From IMG/VR virus record IMGVR_UViG_2721755721_000001: a DNA stretch of 64,000 nt; one strand, 5' to 3'. The notes beneath the pieces were generated by a model, which searched no databases, was not told the origin of the DNA, and worked only from the letters and a program-made list of their open reading frames with translations. The position numbers were made by a program, and so were the translations under genes. Origin of the DNA: a virus. Lineage: Duplodnaviria > Heunggongvirae > Uroviricota > Caudoviricetes. Positions 784 to 22,225 of this stretch are shown one piece after another. Numbering within the stretch: position 1 is the first letter of the stretch; every line of letters starts with the position of its first letter.

Positions 784-3456
784 TTAACCCGGCACCTCGC
801 TGTTGAAGACATAGAGCCTGCGGGGATTCATCTCTGGCGGGCGAATGGTTGTCTGGAGTTTGCCATCAGTGGAGGGCAGCAGGTATCCACGATCTGCGCA
901 CAGACGCGCCACCTTGCGCGGGTCAAATCCCCTGCAGATTTCTTTCCAGCCGGACGGCATGACATAGAACGTAGTGACAGCTTCCGTGCCCTGCGCGGTA
1001 CTGCCTTTCTCCACCCTTCGCCAGCCCACCATATTGCCGGGGCGGTTGCGCTCGTCATACCAGTCTGCAAAGCGGCTGTACTGATTCGCGGTAAAGAAAC
1101 TGCGAACCTGCTCCAGTGCGGCGATATCTTCCTGATTGGCGGTGTGCCCGCGATCTTTCAGCCATGCGTTCAGGCAGACGCGGGTTGCCCGCAGTGCTTC
1201 ACCCTCAGGCCAGCCGGTGATACCCAGACGGGTTGCCAGTTCACCTGCCATCGCCACCAGTGCAAAGCGGTTCACAGCCCGGCCCACCTGATTGCCTGCA
1301 TCTTTCGGAGTCAGGGCGGCAGCATATTCCTTCATCAGCGATTTTGCCTGTGCCGTTAGTCCGTTAAGATCAGCGGTCAGTGCTTTCAGCCACTCCCGGA
1401 ACGGCGAACCGTAGTAGCAGGACGTGGCCCATTCAAGATGCTCTGCCAGAGCCTTGCCGCTGTCGAAGCCGTGCAGCTCCTCAAAAACGCCAAACTTCCC
1501 GGAATCGCTGGGGATCTGGATCATCCTGACTTCCATCCCGGCAAAAGTACGCTCACCGGCCTTTGCCGCATGTTCGGTCAGAGACAATTCGCCAGTTGAA
1601 AAGAACAACAGGCGCCACTGCTTACGGGTACGCAGCTCACCGTCCGTACCGGCACGGCCCTTGCCCTGACCGTTTGCCAGCATGTAGGCGATATTGCCTG
1701 CCTCGCGTCCGTCAACTTCCCGGATCTCATCAAGCATCATGGCGGCATCGTTGCGGCGGCTGGCGCATCCCTCCAGTGCGTTGCCGGTGGCCCGCCATGT
1801 CTGCCAGTAGTCAGGCCCGCCGCAGACGGAGGTTGCTGCTTTCATGGTGGTGGTCTTACCGTCTGTCGATTCCCCTTTGAGGTGGTAGCCGCCGCCGTCC
1901 ATACCAACCAGCCGTAACAGTGGTGCAGCAAAGGCCAGGCTGACAGCAAATGCCACGCGGGAGTTGCCGGTACAGTAGCGGGATACATGCTCCCGCCATT
2001 CCTCTGTTGTGCCCGACACGCGGAAATCACGCCCCTGCACGGAAGTGGTCTGGAGAATGACACCCTCTGCACCTTCACCGCTGACCTCATCCTGCAGGAC
2101 GTAAACCTGACCATGCCAGCCAGTACGACTGACGCAGGTCACGCGGCGTTCCGGTTTACACAGTGAGATATATTCCATCAGGCGTGCGCGTGCCTCACCG
2201 GTGGTGCTGATATAAGACAGCCCGTTAACCAGCAGTACCCGGCGCAGTTCCTCACCACTGCCGCTCAGCATTTCCATCGGCATCGCCCAGCGGCGACACT
2301 CACCCCACGTATCTTCCCATTCCAGCAGTCGTCCGAAGTTACCGCCATCGGCATCGCAGGTGATTGCCGTCACGCGCAGCGGGCTGCATATTTTGACGTT
2401 CTGGATCTCCGTCTCACCGTTGCGCTGTACCTGCTTTTCATACCAGAGATATTCCTGGGTAAGACGGAACCCGTGCGGCAGTTGCGTGCGGCTTTCCCCG
2501 CAGAGTACCAGACCGTTGCGAAAGGCTTCACGGGCACGGGTAATACCGTGCTCCCGATGAAAGTCATTCCAGTCAGCCTTAATCTCTTCTGGTGGCAGCG
2601 TCATCCAGCCGCCAACAGCTTTTGCCGCCCGTTCAGCAAAGGCTCTGCCGGGATTCTCACCCCCGTCCTGAAAATCGTTATCACCGGCGATGATAATTTT
2701 TACCTCAGGCCAGCGTGCCCGCAGCGACTGCGCCACATTGGGCAGGTTGCCCGCAGATATGGCAGCCACTACGCATCCGGCAGTGAGCTGGCTTACCGTC
2801 AGCGCCGTAGCGTAACCTTCGGTAATCACCACCTGTATCGGTGGTTCAGACGGTAACGGGCTGAGCGACACAAACGCGCCTTTCATCGTGCTGCCGGGCA
2901 GTATGCTTTTTTCACCCGTCGGGGCGATAAGCTGTGCACCGGTCACGGCTCCGGTGTTGGTCGTGAGTGGTAACAGCAGGGAACCGGCAGGAAAATCCTT
3001 ACCGCTGATATGCTGTACGCTTCCGGTCAGAGAGGCCGGGTATCCGGCGAACCCTTTTCCTGTCAGATAGGCGCTTTCTCCCGTGTGGCTCTCTTTCATC
3101 AGCGCCGCCACGGTAAGACCCATGTCGCGTTTAGGGGCTTTTTGTCTGGCAGGCTTAACAGGCAGTTCCTGCATATCCGGCACATTAAGCACCTGCGCCA
3201 CCTCCTGCGCAGCCTTTCTGACGTTGTAACCGGTTACGAGCTTAACCAGATCCAGACCGTCACCATTGCCACACTGGCTGCAGATCCACGTCCCGCGCCC
3301 GTCAAGGTCATCAAGGCGAAAACGATCCTTGCCCCCACATTTCGGGCAGGGACCGTGCCTGCCGTTTTCAGGTACATCAATACGCAGCATCTGCAGAATA
3401 ACGGGCCATTTCCCCCGTGCGGCGGCTGAAACCTGCGTAACCGTCTGTATTGTCAT
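784..3456 (-). CDS. P4 alpha-like DNA primase-helicase (890 aa)
   Basis: N-terminal zinc finger CPKCGGKDRFR...CSQCG, TOPRIM-like ITEGYATALTV/IIIAGDND, Walker A GESTDGKTT in C-terminal helicase part. Confidence 0.85.
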   Translation of the reverse strand: MTIQTVTQVSAAARGKWPVILQMLRIDVPENGRHGPCPKCGGKDRFRLDDLDGRGTWICSQCGNGDGLDLVKLVTGYNVRKAAQEVAQVLNVPDMQELPVKPARQKAPKRDMGLTVAALMKESHTGESAYLTGKGFAGYPASLTGSVQHISGKDFPAGSLLLPLTTNTGAVTGAQLIAPTGEKSILPGSTMKGAFVSLSPLPSEPPIQVVITEGYATALTVSQLTAGCVVAAISAGNLPNVAQSLRARWPEVKIIIAGDNDFQDGGENPGRAFAERAAKAVGGWMTLPPEEIKADWNDFHREHGITRAREAFRNGLVLCGESRTQLPHGFRLTQEYLWYEKQVQRNGETEIQNVKICSPLRVTAITCDADGGNFGRLLEWEDTWGECRRWAMPMEMLSGSGEELRRVLLVNGLSYISTTGEARARLMEYISLCKPERRVTCVSRTGWHGQVYVLQDEVSGEGAEGVILQTTSVQGRDFRVSGTTEEWREHVSRYCTGNSRVAFAVSLAFAAPLLRLVGMDGGGYHLKGESTDGKTTTMKAATSVCGGPDYWQTWRATGNALEGCASRRNDAAMMLDEIREVDGREAGNIAYMLANGQGKGRAGTDGELRTRKQWRLLFFSTGELSLTEHAAKAGERTFAGMEVRMIQIPSDSGKFGVFEELHGFDSGKALAEHLEWATSCYYGSPFREWLKALTADLNGLTAQAKSLMKEYAAALTPKDAGNQVGRAVNRFALVAMAGELATRLGITGWPEGEALRATRVCLNAWLKDRGHTANQEDIAALEQVRSFFTANQYSRFADWYDERNRPGNMVGWRRVEKGSTAQGTEAVTTFYVMPSGWKEICRGFDPRKVARLCADRGYLLPSTDGKLQTTIRPPEMNPRRLYVFNSEVPG

Positions 3457-3836
3457 ACTTCCCCCTCATACAACGTCACACCGGTACTGCAGAAGTCATC
3501 AAATGCCGCCGGAAGCGTGCGGTACATCTCCGCCATCACTTCACAGCCGCGCGCGGTCAGTACCGGCGGCGCGGTCAGCAGTGACGGCTCCAGCATGTCA
3601 GTCAGCAGTGCCAGCGCGGCAGCGGCGCCCTGCACTTCGCCGTACTCGTTAATCAGTACGCACTCGATATGCAGCGCAATGGCCATTTCAATACGCTCCA
3701 CCGTCAGGCTGTGCGGACCATACTGATCACTGCCAGTTTCGTTCAGCATTTTCTGCCGCCATGCTGAAGCAATAGCCCGCCGGTAAAGCGCGGTGGTCAT
3801 TTCTACCGGGAAAATGGAAACCTGCGGCTGGTTCAT
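3453..3836 (-). CDS. hypothetical protein (127 aa), satellite early operon
   Basis: ORF overlaps the primase start by 4 bp (translational coupling). Confidence 0.5.
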   Translation of the reverse strand: MNQPQVSIFPVEMTTALYRRAIASAWRQKMLNETGSDQYGPHSLTVERIEMAIALHIECVLINEYGEVQGAAAALALLTDMLEPSLLTAPPVLTARGCEVMAEMYRTLPAAFDDFCSTGVTLYEGEV

Positions 3837-4117
3837 CTGGCACCTCCTTCAATCAGTGCGCAGCTGTGTGCAATATCCGTCAAATCTGCCAGCAGGTACT
3901 CCATCAGCGCGGCGACACCAGGCGCACAGCCTGCGTCCAGTGCTCCGGCCTGAGACGGGTATTCAGAAAAGAGAAGCTGGAGCATGTCGCAGGCATTTCT
4001 TGCGCGGGTCAGCTTTCCGAAACTGTCCTCTGACAACCCATAGGCAAAAGCACCGGTATTGTGTTTTTCAGGCAAAGTGTGGCCCTGAGCACCGTTGTGC
4101 CCGTTTGAAATATTCAT
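3833..4117 (-). CDS. hypothetical protein (94 aa)
   Basis: ORF overlaps downstream gene by 4 bp, same operon. Confidence 0.45.
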   Translation of the reverse strand: MNISNGHNGAQGHTLPEKHNTGAFAYGLSEDSFGKLTRARNACDMLQLLFSEYPSQAGALDAGCAPGVAALMEYLLADLTDIAHSCALIEGGAR

Positions 4118-4148
4118 CGTGGATTACTCCGTTTTCAGCGGTATTTTG

Positions 4149-4538
4149 TCAGAGAAACTTTGAATAGTGACCGTCGTCAGGCTCAGCAGAACGCCGTATG
4201 CTACGCTCCCGCCAGCGGATAAATAGCACAGACGGATGCAGTGTCAGCGGGCCGGAACCACTACCGCCAGCAGGAGCTGGTGCAGGCTTCAAGAGCGGTA
4301 CATCAAACAGGCGCGTATACCGCTGTTCAAACCATGCCAGAGGGCAGGAAGAAAGCTTGTTGTCGCTGTCATGACGTATCAGCACTTCACAGCTGAATTC
4401 AGGATTAACCAGCGCCACAGAGGGCGAGGCTTCTATTAATCGGATAATCGTGACCGTCCAGCCACGTTCATGCTGCCAGCGTTCGCCGGGGTGCGGATAA
4501 TTACGCATGTTCACCTCCGCAGGGAATGCGCCCGGCAA
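4149..4538 (-). CDS. hypothetical protein (about 120-129 aa, start uncertain)
   Basis: ORF in operon orientation; overlaps the Icd-like gene. Confidence 0.4.
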   Translation of the reverse strand: MPGAFPAEVNMRNYPHPGERWQHERGWTVTIIRLIEASPSVALVNPEFSCEVLIRHDSDNKLSSCPLAWFEQRYTRLFDVPLLKPAPAPAGGSGSGPLTLHPSVLFIRWRERSIRRSAEPDDGHYSKFL

Positions 4539-13162: not shown

Positions 13163-13295
13163 TCTTTGGGACTCCTGGCTGATTAAGTATGTCGATAAGG
13201 CGTTTCCATCCGTCACGTAATTTACGGGTGATTCGTTCAAGTAAAGATTCGGAAGGGCAGCCAGCAACAGGCCACCCTGCAATGGCATATTGCAT
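13131..13295 (-). CDS. cIII: lambda CIII (FtsH inhibitor)
   Basis: [54 protein letters not shown]. Confidence 0.85.
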   Translation of the reverse strand: MQYAIAGWPVAGCPSESLLERITRKLRDGWKRLIDILNQPGVPKNGSNTYGYPD

Positions 13296-13367
13296 GGTGT
13301 GCTCCTTATTTATACATAACGAAAAACGCCTCGAGTGAAGCGTTATTGGTATGCGGTAAAGCCGCAC

Positions 13368-13736
13368 TCAGGCGGCCTTGATAGTCATATCATCTGAATC
13401 AAATATTCCTGATGTATCGATATCGGTAATTCTTATTCCTTCGCTACCATCCATTGGAGGCCATCCTTCCTGACCATTTCCATCATTCCAGTCGAACTCA
13501 CACACAACACCATATGCATTTAAGTCGCTTGAAATTGCTATAAGCAGAGCATGTTGCGCCAGCATGATTAATACAGCATTTAATACAGAGCCGTGTTTAT
13601 TGAGTCGGTATTCAGAGTCTGACCAGAAATTATTAATCTGGTGAAGTTTTTCCTCTGTCATTACGTCATGGTCGATTTCAATTTCTATTGATGCTTTCCA
13701 GTCGTAATCAATGATGTATTTTTTGATGTTTGACAT
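13368..13736 (-). CDS. ea10: lambda Ea10
   Basis: 122 aa, MSNIKKYIIDYDWKASIEIEIDHDV... Confidence 0.8.
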   Translation of the reverse strand: MSNIKKYIIDYDWKASIEIEIDHDVMTEEKLHQINNFWSDSEYRLNKHGSVLNAVLIMLAQHALLIAISSDLNAYGVVCEFDWNDGNGQEGWPPMDGSEGIRITDIDTSGIFDSDDMTIKAA

Positions 13737-13916: not shown

Positions 13917-14540
13917 CTATGCGGCCTCGGAAGGAAGTCCAATCATCTTATTCAAATCTTCTACCCGTAAAGCAGGAAGTGCTGTACTTGCTTTATCTGC
14001 TTCTTTTGGTAGCAATTCTTTGCTTTCAGGCCAAACTTCAATAAGTCGCTTAACTGTTGTTACTGAGTTCAAAGCAGCCCATACATTTGATTCGATATCC
14101 TTTTTCCTGGCTTCAAGTTTTTGTTGCAATGCGCAGATTTCATCAAACCTTTTTGTTATTTCGTGTTCTGCGTTAAACATGCATTTATCTCTGTTAGGAG
14201 TAGGGAGCAATATATCTTCGCCGTTACCGTCTTTTCCATATGAATACCAGCCAACCCTTCTGCCAGATACAGTCAGATAAATTGAAGTAGAACGAACATC
14301 GTATGAGTAAAATGAACATCCCATCTTTTCAAGTTCTTCACTTATAGCCATTAATCTGGATGATAACTGATCCACTTCTTCAGTTTTCTTTTTACCGCCA
14401 AACGCAACAACTCTGGCGTCAAGTGCAAGCCGGTTCTTTAACTTTGTTACTTCTTCAAGTTCGGTGAAAACCCCGGACTTAATTAAAGCGTTACGAGCGA
14501 TATCCTCTTTCATTCTCGTAGTTAAGCGGATTGATGACAT
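13917..14540 (-). CDS. hypothetical protein (about 207 aa) in the ral/sieB slot between ea10 and N
   Basis: Start at MSSIRLTTRM with GAGAGG Shine-Dalgarno; no motif recognised. Confidence 0.55.
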   Translation of the reverse strand: MSSIRLTTRMKEDIARNALIKSGVFTELEEVTKLKNRLALDARVVAFGGKKKTEEVDQLSSRLMAISEELEKMGCSFYSYDVRSTSIYLTVSGRRVGWYSYGKDGNGEDILLPTPNRDKCMFNAEHEITKRFDEICALQQKLEARKKDIESNVWAALNSVTTVKRLIEVWPESKELLPKEADKASTALPALRVEDLNKMIGLPSEAA

Positions 14541-14601
14541 ATTAATTCCTCTCAAATAAGTGGTTTGCTGCCTGATTTCATTTTCTGGTGACCAACACAA
14601 G

Positions 14602-14985
14602 TCATCTTGCTGTCAGTTGTTTTGATTTCCGGTAGCCTGCCGCGTAAATGGCTACGTTTGGAAGACATACACCAGTTTCTGGTTGCTTATGTCCAAACTC
14701 ATTCGCGTACACAATGGCCGCTCGCTCCAGATTGCGTCTGTATTCTTTCTGTTGCCAGATCACGTCCTGTGCCATGAACTTAATTGGCTTAGCGTCTTCT
14801 ATGCGCTCAGGCGTTTCGTGAGTACCTTTAGCCTGAATCTGCGCTCTGCTTAGAGTAGGGCGGTGTAATACTTCTGAACTTATTGCTTCTTCGCGGGCCA
14901 GTACGCCGTTAGCTAATGCCTTTGCCTTTAAACGCTCACGACGACGAGAACGTGAATTGCCTTTGAACTGAGTTCTGCGTGTCAT
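14602..14985 (-). CDS. N-like transcription antiterminator (arginine-rich N-terminus)
   Basis: MTRRTQFKGNSRSRRRERLKAKALANG... arginine-rich motif; first gene leftward of the immunity region. Confidence 0.6.
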   Translation of the reverse strand: MTRRTQFKGNSRSRRRERLKAKALANGVLAREEAISSEVLHRPTLSRAQIQAKGTHETPERIEDAKPIKFMAQDVIWQQKEYRRNLERAAIVYANEFGHKQPETGVCLPNVAIYAAGYRKSKQLTAR

Positions 14986-15454
14986 ATAGACCTCCTGATG
15001 AACTTTGGTGGTGTGGTAGGTGGGAGACCCATTTCGACCTGTTTCGGCCTACTTCAATTCGGCAATAGTCCCGCAGGCCTCGCCGCTTTACGTGCGACAT
15101 ATTCCCGTCCATGAACCCTTCACCACACCCCAAAGTTCACTTTGGTTATTGCGCTTTGTCAGCGCCGTAGATTCATATTCGAATCGTTGTATATTCACCG
15201 CCCTGGTGAGTAATGCGTCCTGCTGACGACGATAATAATGAACCAATAGTTCGACATTATTAAGAACTATTGGTACGAATTTTGGTGATTTATTAACTCT
15301 ACGAAGTATGATTCTGATATATAAGGAAATTTATTTTTGAAAATGTGGCTGATGAAGGTTATGCGGCAGGGATCATAACTGCATGGTTTAGCGAGTTACA
15401 TCAACAAATACAATTGGTTATGGTGTTTTTAGGTGGGGGATCGAGAGGCAAAGA

Positions 15455-15485
15455 AAACCCGGCTCGGTGGCCGGGGTTAGATTTT
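15455..15485 (-). terminator. rho-independent terminator downstream of the 341-aa gene
   Basis: Minus-strand CCCGGC-cacc-gaGCCGGG hairpin followed by TTTTCTTT, directly after the stop at 15489. Confidence 0.55.
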
Positions 15486-15488
15486 CTG

Positions 15489-16514
15489 TTATGGGCGAGT
15501 GATGGTTGATGCGTTTCCGTTTTCTATTACACCTGCTCGTATCGTGTAGCTTCCCAAGATTTTTACTGTCCTGTTTTCTTTCATTGCATCAAACAGTATG
15601 GCGATCTCGTCTTTATCATCTATGAACGACGTGTCCACCGAAACAGGGAAACTGTCTTCACTAGATGGTTCGCGGCAGCTTAGGGTTATCTTTTCCGCAG
15701 TACGCTTGATTCCATCAATGACTAATTCAAGGTTTCTTTCTTCTTTTTTTGCTTTTTCGATAGGGTTCTTGATTAGTTCGTGGATTTCTTTGTTAGACAG
15801 TTCAACTGTGCTTGCGCCTGATATGACAATTTTGTCAGCATCAGACGCGCCTTTTAATACCCCTGTATACGCTTTTGCAGTATGCTCTTGAATCCCTTCG
15901 GCGCGCTCTACTGCATCTATGCCCGCTTTAGCTCTAATCGCCTCAAGCATTCCGTCCCTTAATATCGTCATGCGCTCGTTTTCTGATTTAATCTTGGCTT
16001 CTTCGAGCTTTGTTTCTTCTTGCTTGACTTCTACTTCGGCTTTTTTCTCTAAGTATGATGTACCAACCCATGCACCGCCTATAACGGTGACAGCAAACAA
16101 GAAGCATAATGTTTTTTGGCTAGGACTCATACCGTGTGTTACCTTCTCAAAGGCTTTACCGAATGCTTCAAAAAGCTTTGTTAATGCAGCAAGTATATCA
16201 GTACAACCTTCATTAATGGTAAAGATGATCTCTGCTTCCTCTTTATCTTTACCAGTTAACCTTTGAAGGTTGTCAGTTTTATATTTTATTAGTGTGAAAA
16301 CTTTATAAATTTCAGTCTGAAATTCGCATAAACCCTGAGCTAGAGGAGATGGAAGCGTTCCGTTGTAGCGAGAAGGATCACCATAAATCTTAAAATTCAC
16401 ATTATTGAAGAGGTCTAACTTGATCCTGTCGATAGTGATCTCTTCGCCACCATCTAACCTTGCAAACAAAGATTCAATGTCGTCCAGACTTGAAACATTA
16501 ATAATATCTTTCAT
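15489..16514 (-). CDS. unassigned membrane-anchored protein (341 aa) in the rexAB position downstream of cI
   Basis: GAAGGTG Shine-Dalgarno; AT-rich; one predicted TM helix (LCFLFAVTVIGGAWVGTSYL) then K/E-rich coiled coil; no motif recognised. Confidence 0.7.
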   Translation of the reverse strand: MKDIINVSSLDDIESLFARLDGGEEITIDRIKLDLFNNVNFKIYGDPSRYNGTLPSPLAQGLCEFQTEIYKVFTLIKYKTDNLQRLTGKDKEEAEIIFTINEGCTDILAALTKLFEAFGKAFEKVTHGMSPSQKTLCFLFAVTVIGGAWVGTSYLEKKAEVEVKQEETKLEEAKIKSENERMTILRDGMLEAIRAKAGIDAVERAEGIQEHTAKAYTGVLKGASDADKIVISGASTVELSNKEIHELIKNPIEKAKKEERNLELVIDGIKRTAEKITLSCREPSSEDSFPVSVDTSFIDDKDEIAILFDAMKENRTVKILGSYTIRAGVIENGNASTITRP

Positions 16515-16594
16515 TACAACACCTTCGGCACAACCTTGCTAGTTAAATTAGTGATTATAAAAATTGGATACTTACCAGCTATGTGACGATGAAG

Positions 16595-17302
16595 TCACGA
16601 ACTTTTCAGCCACTCCCTTGCCTCGATGTCATCCAGATGGCGAGATTGCTTCAGAATACCAGCTACATACTCCACCTTTGCTACTTGATGATAAGGCAAC
16701 GTTATAGGCCTGTGATCCTGGTTAATGCTTGTAAATTGGTATTCTCCATCTCTGTCATAGCCAAGAACCTTAATCATGTTGTGTCCTTCAACGGTTCTGA
16801 CAAACACCTCATCACCCGGGAATACTTTGGTGTTAGGCTCAATGAGTACATATTCTCCTGATTTTATTCTGGGCCACATGCTGTCTCCTTTCACACGAAG
16901 ACCAAAGGCATCTGGATCATCGCTATAAATTTTGAGCCACCCATCGCGCTCTTCGGTCATCTCGATGGCACCATCAACACCAAGAATTGCCTCACCAACC
17001 ACGCGCACTAACCCTTTTTTTAATTTGCCAACAAATGAAAGAGTATCTTCATCATTCGCTCCATTTAACGAAGTGCCGTGCTGAAGCCAAACAACATCAA
17101 CGTTTAGAAATTTCGCAAGCGCATTCATTTTTTCCTGACGCGGTAAAGACTCAGCATTAAACCATTTGCTAACGCCTTTGGACGAAAGAGAAAGGGCACG
17201 GGCTATAGCCATTCCCCTACCATGTTCATCAAGACCAGCTTCTTTACAGGCTTGCGCTAGCCGCTGGGCGAATTCTTTGCGCACTTTTTCATTCTGAACC
17301 AT
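16595..17302 (-). CDS. cI: CI-type prophage repressor (HTH + S24 LexA-like peptidase)
   Basis: N-terminal HTH, C-terminal GDSMWP Ser/Lys dyad region; divergent from cro. Confidence 0.9.
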   Translation of the reverse strand: MVQNEKVRKEFAQRLAQACKEAGLDEHGRGMAIARALSLSSKGVSKWFNAESLPRQEKMNALAKFLNVDVVWLQHGTSLNGANDEDTLSFVGKLKKGLVRVVGEAILGVDGAIEMTEERDGWLKIYSDDPDAFGLRVKGDSMWPRIKSGEYVLIEPNTKVFPGDEVFVRTVEGHNMIKVLGYDRDGEYQFTSINQDHRPITLPYHQVAKVEYVAGILKQSRHLDDIEAREWLKSS

Positions 17303-17380
17303 GAGTACGATACTAAAGCACTTGCAAAAACTTTCAGTTCAACCATAATACGTACTGAAAGTACGAAAAAGGATATTCCT
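17303..17380. promoter_or_regulatory. cI-cro intergenic operator/promoter region (oR, pRM/pR analogue)
   Basis: 78-bp divergent intergenic region with partially symmetric GTACTGAAAGTAC-type elements. Confidence 0.5.
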
Positions 17381-17608
17381 ATGCAAAATCTTGATGAGCC
17401 GATTAAAGGTGTCGGCATCCCTGAAGTTGCGAAGGCTTGTGGAGTTAGCGAAAGGGCTGTCTATAAGTGGCTCAAAAACGGCTTCCTCCCTAAGACTGAG
17501 TTTTTTGGGAAAACTAAATACGCATCAAAAATCGAAGAGATTTCTGGTGGCAAATATCAAGCAAGCGAAATGCTTGAAATAAGCAAAAAGAACCTTCTGG
17601 CTGCATAA
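17381..17608 (+). CDS. cro: Cro-like HTH repressor
   Basis: 75-aa HTH protein divergent from cI. Confidence 0.7.
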   Translation: MQNLDEPIKGVGIPEVAKACGVSERAVYKWLKNGFLPKTEFFGKTKYASKIEEISGGKYQASEMLEISKKNLLAA

Positions 17609-21216: not shown

Positions 21217-21490
21217 TTGACGCGATGATTTATTCGGGGCTATATTCCTCACGCGCCAGCAAAATCTGGCGTCGGGATTGGCGTCCTGGATAGAGACCGC
21301 GACAGATACACGCCGCGAGCGTGTTTTTTATTGTCGTATGCACGCGCACATCTGAATTATGGTGGGCTGTGTGGGGGCGGAGAGATCCGCGCCGGTCGGT
21401 TTCCCGGTTACGCCAACCCTGCACAGTTCACCACCAGACGATTGGCGTCGTCGGTGGTGAGTTATTAAGAAACCACCAGAGGGCGTCATT

Positions 21491-22225
21491 ATGACAACTC
21501 AAATTTCTGTTGAAACTCTCTCCCCGATCACCCATAACCAGATTCCTGTTATTACCACCGAACTTTTGGCGCAGCTTTACGGCACTGAGCCGGTGCGTAT
21601 TCGCCAGAATCATCATGAGAACAAAGTACGCTTCGTTGAAGGGAAACACTTTTTCAAAGTTGTTGGTAATGACCTTAAAGAATTGCGGGTAGCTTTAAAC
21701 TACTCACAAAATTTGCGGGTTACTTTAAGTAACTCACAAAATTTGCAACCATCTTTAAGAGGGTTACAAATTTCCCCGAAAGCCCGCTCCCTCATACTCT
21801 GGACAGAACGAGGCGCAGCCCGTCACGCAAAAATGCTCGAAACTGATCAGGCGTGGGATGTGTTCGAAAAACTGGAAGACTGCTATTTCAGCCAGTGCGA
21901 GAAAAATACTGGCAAACAAGAGAAGAAGCTCAACGGGCTTTCCGCAAAAGAAACAGACAGCCTTGTATGGCTGTGGGATTATGCCAACCGCTCACAGGCA
22001 TTGTTCCGTGAGTTGTATCCCGCATTAAAACTGATTCAGTCTGGCTATTCCGGCATATGCCACGACTACGGCTATGAGTTCTCGTATATCATCGGGAGGG
22101 CGAGGGGCGTTTTAATTAATCACACGCGGGATATAGATATTTATGAGCCTGACGGGCCGACGAACCTTCTGGCATGGGAAAGGCTTAAGAACAAAGAGTT
22201 GCCGCCTTCACTGCATCGCTACTGA
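21491..22225 (+). CDS. ORF6N-domain antirepressor-like DNA-binding protein
   Basis: N-terminus [38 protein letters not shown] typical ORF6N domain; internal short repeats. Confidence 0.65.

Follow-up and report, generated by a model that had tools for sequence, protein, structure and literature searches.

In a 64,000-nucleotide stretch of Caudoviricetes DNA (IMG/VR record IMGVR_UViG_2721755721_000001; hereafter the window), a gene for a 341-residue protein at 15489-16514 on the minus strand replaces rexA-rexB exactly, as judged by alignment with lambda, giving the order cI - gene - Timm. This gene, together with its Timm-type terminator, is a mobile prophage cargo cassette, and we regard it as a solid candidate, though not a demonstrated system, for repressor-linked prophage exclusion or defence. 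Substitution of the slot is not itself new, as a GenBank entry from 2007 already records a 'conserved hypothetical' in place of rexAB; what our analysis adds is the breadth of the family, its capture behind at least ten repressor types and at other cargo sites, the shared Timm junction, and the predicted anatomy of the protein. The lambda cI-rexAB operon is the textbook prophage exclusion system expressed with the repressor, and is still incompletely understood.

The slot between cI and Timm

The gene had been singled out by a reading of the window's sequence alone (the sequence-only reading), which described a 341-residue membrane protein occupying the position of rexAB. Its open reading frame (ORF), with an ATG start and a stop codon at 15489-15491, is borne out by the ORF listing, by homologues and by a ratio of non-synonymous to synonymous substitution (dN/dS) of ~0.1 relative to a 90%-identical copy, and is thus a real gene under purifying selection rather than a chance ORF. 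The same reading placed its start 80 bp downstream of cI on the same strand, and this distance is exact: the spacer (16515-16594, minus strand) separates the ATG from the stop codon of a CI-type repressor gene at 16595-17302 on the minus strand (HTH_3 and Peptidase_S24 in Pfam; PHROG 4). The surroundings do not, as had been supposed, contain the cI of lambda, since the repressor is an allele that occurs in many Stx2a-converting phages. The spacer, which has the same sequence in RM10740 and resembles one in MDK9L1, holds a good Shine-Dalgarno sequence (AAGGTG, 16520-16525) and a TATAAT hexamer with a poor -35 element, and a terminator scan found no terminator-like site in it. By analogy with lambda, the repressor gene is presumably the first gene of a PRM/PRE transcript that also carries the 341-residue gene, which would hence be made in the lysogen.

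On the other side of the gene, a rho-independent terminator (15450-15475, minus strand) consists of a hairpin, CCCGGCC-ACCGA-GCCGGG, located at 15458-15475, 13 bases past the ORF stop, and then, on the minus strand, TTTTCTTT. This terminator and ~70 bp past it align with lambda DNA directly downstream of rexB; the DNA at 15385-15449 (minus strand), whose lambda counterpart lies between Timm and oL, forms the left junction of the replaced segment. At Timm itself, lambda and the window agree in both the stem and the TTTTCTTTGCCTC tail, after which comes AAAACACATAACCAATTGTATTT. Because the match to lambda begins right after rexB, the replacement of rexA-rexB is exact. A parallel is found in phage mEp332 (GenBank EF120456, annotated 'immunity region'), where a 345-residue homologue, 42% identical over its full length, lies between a genuine lambda cI and an annotated Timm; it is gene mEp33204, described there as an E. 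coli UTI89_C5141-like 'conserved hypothetical protein'. Alignment with lambda and with the annotated Timm of mEp332 therefore identifies the terminator as a homologue of lambda Timm. The comparison with the cI-rexA-rexB architecture made in the sequence-only reading is upheld by these two lines of evidence and by the association with at least ten repressor types described below; the terminator that it assigned to the gene does exist as a hairpin with a T-run, and is the lambda Timm homologue.

Phages carrying Stx2a with the same cI allele hold unrelated cargo in this slot, a 113-residue ORF and a 285-residue ORF, indicating that the slot is a site of variable cargo. In one of them, Stx2_EH0505, the two-gene insert lies at 3183-4529, equivalent to 15489-16514 of the window. 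The 285-residue ORF looks NYN/LabA-like by eye, and the 113-residue ORF takes a DUF3024 label by way of a homologue or similar-sized ORF just upstream of the copy of our gene in Yersinia ruckeri (locus L008, 4596-4937), which matches DUF3024.

The gene had also been described as AT-rich, unlike its neighbours. It is indeed low in G+C (40.4%, compared with 51.8% for the window), but the whole immunity and early-left region (13-18.5 kb) has a G+C content of 37-47%, including 45% for cI, so the AT-richness is real and yet does not distinguish the gene from the DNA around it.

A cro-like gene (17381-17608) is divergent from the repressor gene and is followed by homologues of cII, O and P. The presumed oR (17303-17380) and the presumed oL (15250-15450) have no k-mer of 9 or more bases in common, while short half sites of the TACGAA type recur. 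A sigma-70-like site (ATCACA-17-TATCAT, 16688-16716, minus strand; 9/12 matches) lies in the 3'-terminal part of cI, ~170 bp before the start of the 341-residue gene, and could, on the strength of its consensus match, act as an internal promoter resembling pLit.

A cargo cassette found behind many repressors

Relatives of the protein are widespread. Homologues form 59 clusters at 90% identity across the Enterobacterales, including Citrobacter, Cronobacter, Dickeya, Pantoea, Yersinia, Klebsiella, Serratia and Salmonella, and none carries an annotation beyond hypothetical. Searching 1.84 billion representatives with a profile recovered 728 relatives (representatives at 50% identity; E<=1e-3), nearly all of which have 310-380 residues and align end to end, with members also in phages of Pasteurella and Leptospira. 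Nearly identical copies are present in the cultured phages PhiR12_1 to PhiR12_5, which share 99.7% amino-acid identity with the window's protein and 99.3% identity over the surrounding 2.1 kb of DNA. The family corresponds to PHROG 6191, whose function is unknown (E 2.5e-98; residues 5-340 matched to profile positions 8-333 of 338); this PHROG and mEp33204 are true homologues, the latter in the same slot, and name the family without explaining what it does. Literature searches (PhiR12, mEp332, phi458, rexAB hotspots, and prophage proteins combining an OB fold with a transmembrane (TM) segment) found no paper on the family.

The gene recurs behind repressors that differ far more than the cargo itself. 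A detailed comparison of five loci gave 76-99.7% identity among the cargo proteins. Of the ten pairings of their upstream repressors, nine share only 19-30% identity, with cargo that is 76-90% identical, the exception being the window and RM10740 at 71%. Among the 37 IMG/VR loci that encode a relative, 21 carry, 26-231 bp upstream and in the same orientation, an ORF for a CI-type repressor, and such a repressor likewise lies upstream at loci in E. coli, Dickeya and Cronobacter; the repressors from the IMG/VR and genome loci fall into 10 clusters at 50% identity. The arrangement extends to remote members, as in phage phi458, where Orf11 (25% identical) follows its CI by 25 bp, and in the distant relative P0111 (~20% identical), which sits 35 bp behind an HTH and S24 repressor in a prophage with YqaJ and RecT genes. 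The slot, whose conservation was proposed as a check on the sequence-only reading, thus recurs at 21 of the 37 IMG/VR loci and in mEp332, phi458 and P0111.

Copies also occupy other places in prophages. In Yersinia ruckeri, in P0186 and at Serratia-like loci, the gene lies at a prophage end beside genes for a Gin-type invertase and tail fibres; a Salmonella copy at a prophage boundary adjoins a gene for a giant MuF/LPD polyvalent protein; another adjoins an integrase gene with an Abi_2 gene nearby; and the relative P0147 is found in the Arc/antirepressor region of a podophage, near tail genes. Genes neighbouring the relatives include Abi_2, NYN and AAA_15/21, with an NYN gene near P0111. A CCCGGC-N6-GCCGGG hairpin and T-run follow the 3' end of almost every copy, and gene and terminator therefore travel as one.

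Exchange has also occurred within the gene, which is an intragenic mosaic: its C-terminal third is closer to a Klebsiella/Yersinia lineage and its N-terminal part to an E. coli/Citrobacter lineage. When the window's gene was compared with loci L018, L026, L033 and L008, dS relative to a 90%-identical E. coli-type copy was 0.26-0.31 in the first two thirds and 1.7 in the C-terminal third, while dN relative to the Klebsiella, Yersinia and Serratia lineage was 0.08-0.12 in the C-terminal third and 0.27-0.30 in the N-terminal domain. This unevenness indicates recombination between N- and C-terminal modules. Decayed copies are present as well: one (locus L052, 4001-5290) is cut at codon 203 by an apparent insertion of an insertion sequence (IS)-type transposase, judged by eye from ORF translations, and in E. 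coli STEC1585 (H30) only 72% of the gene is matched, in two pieces. The existence of truncated and IS-interrupted copies indicates that the gene is dispensable to the host.

Predicted anatomy and a possible role in exclusion

Our searches agree with the earlier statement that the protein belongs to no recognised family, PHROG 6191 being the sole match. The protein matched no Pfam-A family at E<=1, no NCBIfam family and no PDB sequence (phmmer and hmmsearch), and a profile of 64 members was likewise without a match in Pfam, NCBIfam, PADLOC or PDB. Homology to RexA or RexB was not found, with no Pfam family at E<=1 for the protein and none common to the 64 relatives, nor was there a match to AbiC/Abi_C in Pfam or PADLOC. 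Weak profile hits in PDB to MotB, PBP5 and Tom20 (E 0.015-0.2) were confined to the segment comprising the TM region and adjoining helix and were rejected as compositional, and a structure search of BFVD returned only two full-length-like matches, both uncharacterised phage proteins. A scan of longer or C-terminally divergent family members detected no fused domains informative on topology or function.

The sequence-only reading divided the protein into an N-terminal soluble domain, one TM helix and a C-terminal domain, and this division is supported by an AlphaFold2 (AF2) model built from a 32-sequence alignment (mean predicted local distance difference test score (pLDDT) 80; predicted template-modelling score 0.67). 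Residues 1-128 (1-125 in the model; 16131-16514, minus strand) form a predicted alpha/beta domain, probably cytoplasmic, with an isoelectric point (pI) of 4.8; it is the best-conserved part in the wide family, and no fold match was found for it. Residues 135-155 (TLCFLFAVTVIGGAWVGTSYL; 16050-16112, minus strand), within a long modelled helix at 131-161, are the sole long uncharged stretch in the protein. All but one of 64 diverse relatives, some as little as 19% identical, have their longest stretch free of charged residues (median length 20) in this place; the sequence of the stretch varies, aromatic residues are abundant towards its C-terminal end, and exactly one such segment occurs in 136 of 184 relatives. 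This positional conservation is the signature expected of a TM helix, as which we predict it, with marginal hydrophobicity in the window's protein. It is followed by a charged helical stalk (residues 157-225; 15840-16046, minus strand), which according to the model's secondary structure and pLDDT comprises a low-confidence stretch at 160-172 and helices at 171-196 and 199-222; with 13 lysines plus arginines and 15 aspartates plus glutamates in 69 residues, the stalk is where conservation is lowest (15% pairwise identity across the wide family). For the K/E-rich coiled coil that the sequence-only reading placed here, the analysis shows helices and charge. The C-terminal beta-rich domain (residues 226-341; 15492-15839, minus strand; pI about 5.1) contains at ~254-341 a modelled OB fold, a five-stranded closed beta-barrel superposable on solved OB folds.

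An orientation with the N terminus inside and the C terminus outside is probable, because an N-terminal signal-like segment was found in none of 184 full-length relatives and the N-side flank of the TM helix is the more positive (by +1.7 net charge on average, and in 78% of members). All soluble parts are acidic, the C-terminal part being net-positive in only 11% of relatives, which argues against nucleic-acid binding in the manner of single-stranded DNA-binding proteins and fits a periplasmic head that binds protein or glycan.

Taken with the position of the gene, this anatomy suggests the following account. Transcribed together with cI from PRM/PRE, the gene would provide the lysogen with a bitopic inner-membrane protein, its acidic ~130-residue N-terminal domain probably in the cytoplasm and its acidic OB head, carried on the charged stalk, probably in the periplasm. 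We infer that the protein may protect the lysogen from superinfecting phages at the cell envelope: the stalk-mounted head could bind the DNA-delivery machinery of the incoming phage, or the partner through which it enters at the inner membrane, and so block genome entry in the manner of superinfection-exclusion (Sie) proteins, while the conserved N-terminal domain might serve oligomerisation or signalling. A role in defence, judged from position and cargo behaviour, we consider to have about an even chance; interference with genome delivery by a periplasmic OB head is a tentative proposal and appreciably less probable. In favour of the account are the rexAB slot, the recurrence behind repressors, the presence in lysogeny-associated accessory slots, the conserved hydrophobic helix and the OB fold.

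Several observations weigh against a defensive role or against this anatomy. Cargo in such slots is not always defensive, and at the DNA level the gene is rare in E. coli, found in 5 of 5426 complete genomes with one copy truncated. The protein matched no model of PADLOC-DB 2.0.0 at E<=1, and the 64 relatives gave four single-member hits at chance level. No conserved catalytic or toxin motif was seen, G45, L86, G103 and M129 being the only near-invariant residues in the wide family. The predicted TM helix is marginally hydrophobic (Kyte-Doolittle peak 1.65; crude Hessa sum +1.7), counts of lysine plus arginine are equal on its two flanks (2.5 versus 2.5), and the N-terminal domain loses model confidence when modelled alone, which suggests that it may pack on the downstream helices and fits poorly with a simple two-sided topology. 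The exclusion or abortive-infection (Abi) function proposed in the sequence-only reading accordingly stays a candidate, judged from position and cargo behaviour; the protein matched no known defence family, and it showed no catalytic or toxin motif.

Among characterised systems, the protein resembles lambda RexAB in its position between the CI repressor gene and Timm, with flanking DNA homologous to that of lambda, in its predicted membrane association and in its presumed expression in the lysogen. It differs in that a single ORF, rather than two genes, lies between cI and Timm, and in that the 341-residue product is predicted to cross the membrane once, by a TM helix set between two large domains, whereas RexB crosses it several times and has the soluble sensor RexA as its partner. 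Inner-membrane proteins of superinfection exclusion include T4 Imm, HK97 gp15 and lactococcal Sie2009. P22 SieA, also of the inner membrane, has 162-164 residues, with three TM segments predicted and little outside the membrane in the way of soluble parts (PMC10461980). Like SieA, the 341-residue protein would be a single membrane protein expressed from a prophage and its proposed action would block DNA entry at the inner membrane, and the placement of P0147 recalls the sieA neighbourhood (PMC10461980); unlike SieA, to which it has no sequence relationship, it has one TM helix and two folded domains. The SieA motif FnRYPnEAnnFNK (PMC10461980) is not in the translation, as judged by eye without a pattern search.

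The account given above competes with four others. The protein might be a sensor-effector of Abi, in which a cytoplasmic OB domain binds phage nucleic acid or protein and the TM helix disturbs the membrane, leading to death or arrest of the infected cell. RexAB, which classically fills the slot, is established as a membrane-depolarising Abi system, and the equal lysine and arginine counts would allow a cytoplasmic OB domain. Precedents for defence by a single gene combining TM and OB parts are PdpSau of S. aureus prophages, with a TM helix and OB-like domain and Abi accompanied by membrane depolarisation (PMC10127798), and AbiP of Lactococcus, a membrane-anchored protein with nucleic-acid-binding activity, for which a tail protein is the trigger (PMC13064643). 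Both share with our gene the single accessory gene, TM anchor and OB-type beta domain, and PdpSau is also borne by prophages. In the 341-residue protein, however, the TM helix is central, at 135-155, rather than N-terminal; a conserved 130-residue N-terminal domain is added; the OB domain is acidic (89% of relatives not net positive), whereas that of PdpSau is positively charged; and the family is found in Gram-negative hosts and probably has the opposite orientation, since a signal-less domain before the first TM helix by default leaves the C-terminal half outside the cytoplasm. Homology to PdpSau was rejected (hhalign probability 0.2% for the family profile), and with neither AbiC nor any other Abi family matched in Pfam or PADLOC, an Abi mechanism of this type seems unlikely. 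Another identity is offered by GenBank records PV340549-54 and PV340541, in which the PhiR12 and mEp332 copies are labelled 'T2SS GspM containing protein', that is, as a component of the type II secretion system (T2SS). Although GspM is likewise a bitopic inner-membrane protein, the T2SSM family was unmatched in Pfam at E<=1 by the protein and by the 64 relatives, no PDB sequence hit was obtained, the C-terminal domain is modelled as an OB fold, and the neighbourhood is devoid of T2SS genes; the identity is effectively refuted at the level of sequence and has, in our estimate, a negligible chance of being correct. With this label unsupported, we found no homology to a characterised protein of non-defensive function, and because the features that define the Rex, SieA, AbiC/P, PdpSau and GspM families were each looked for and are lacking, the protein appears to be a member of none of RexAB, SieA, AbiP/PdpSau or GspM.

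The same cargo position, expressed in the lysogen and supplied with a terminator, would suit a lysogenic-conversion factor without a role in defence, an envelope protein altering stress tolerance, adhesion, serum resistance or biofilm formation as do lambda bor and lom. The predicted envelope location, the occurrence in both pathogens and plant-associated Enterobacterales and the lack of a match to any defence family are consistent with this, but 728 representatives reaching into Pasteurella and Leptospira phages argue against a role specific to a host niche, and neither the Abi_2, NYN and AAA_15/21 neighbours nor the filling of the rexAB slot in particular sits well with it; we consider conversion rather improbable. 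The tight, same-strand linkage to many CI types at 26-231 bp could instead reflect a function coupled to CI in the phage's own life cycle (induction, maintenance of the lysogen or a membrane checkpoint) with no action on other phages. Such a function is hard to reconcile with copies far from any repressor, at prophage ends or beside invertases and integrases, with exchange among unrelated repressors, and with a gene that is dispensable, as shown by other cargo behind the same cI allele and by truncated and IS-interrupted copies; we judge it very unlikely.

Returning to superinfection exclusion at the envelope, a bolder form of this reading would see in the family an undescribed but widespread class of transmembrane defence proteins, each encoded by a single gene and able to stand in functionally for RexAB. 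Its periplasmic OB head would then detect or capture the DNA-injection apparatus or the incoming genome end, either blocking entry or signalling through the TM helix to the N-terminal domain, and specificity would be retuned as lineages swap N- and C-terminal halves in mosaic fashion. This combination we hold to be rather improbable. Should the protein prove to act in exclusion or defence, it would represent a new architecture (N-terminal domain, one TM helix, stalk and acidic OB head) and a simple one-gene model for sensing or blocking phage entry at the Gram-negative inner membrane; should it not, it would still be a recurrent envelope protein expressed by lysogens. The question is readily testable, because the gene is carried by culturable phages: PhiR12_1-5 (E. 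coli K-12 and C), mEp332 and phi458.

Other cargo and regulatory elements of the window

The pL operon carries further cargo. A gene at 13917-14600 (minus strand), which begins directly where the N antiterminator gene (14602-14985) stops, encodes a 227-residue Nmad5 protein (nucleotide modification associated domain 5, PF18757; E 1e-71), and further along, at 13368-13736 (minus strand), lies a gene for a DUF2528 protein; together they constitute uncharacterised early-left cargo. Beyond them, an RNA element matching the lambda cIII thermoregulator (13250-13308, minus strand; Rfam RF01804, 88.5 bits) indicates that the left arm from cIII outward is lambda-like, unlike the immunity region.

On the opposite side of the immunity region, Rfam matches to isrK (21253-21329), a C4 antisense RNA (21355-21438) and its a1/b1 target (21240-21292) lie immediately upstream of a 244-residue ORF at 21491-22225 (plus strand). 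The segment at 21240-22225 (plus strand) is a P1/P7-type antisense-controlled antirepressor (immI-like) module situated in the nin region.

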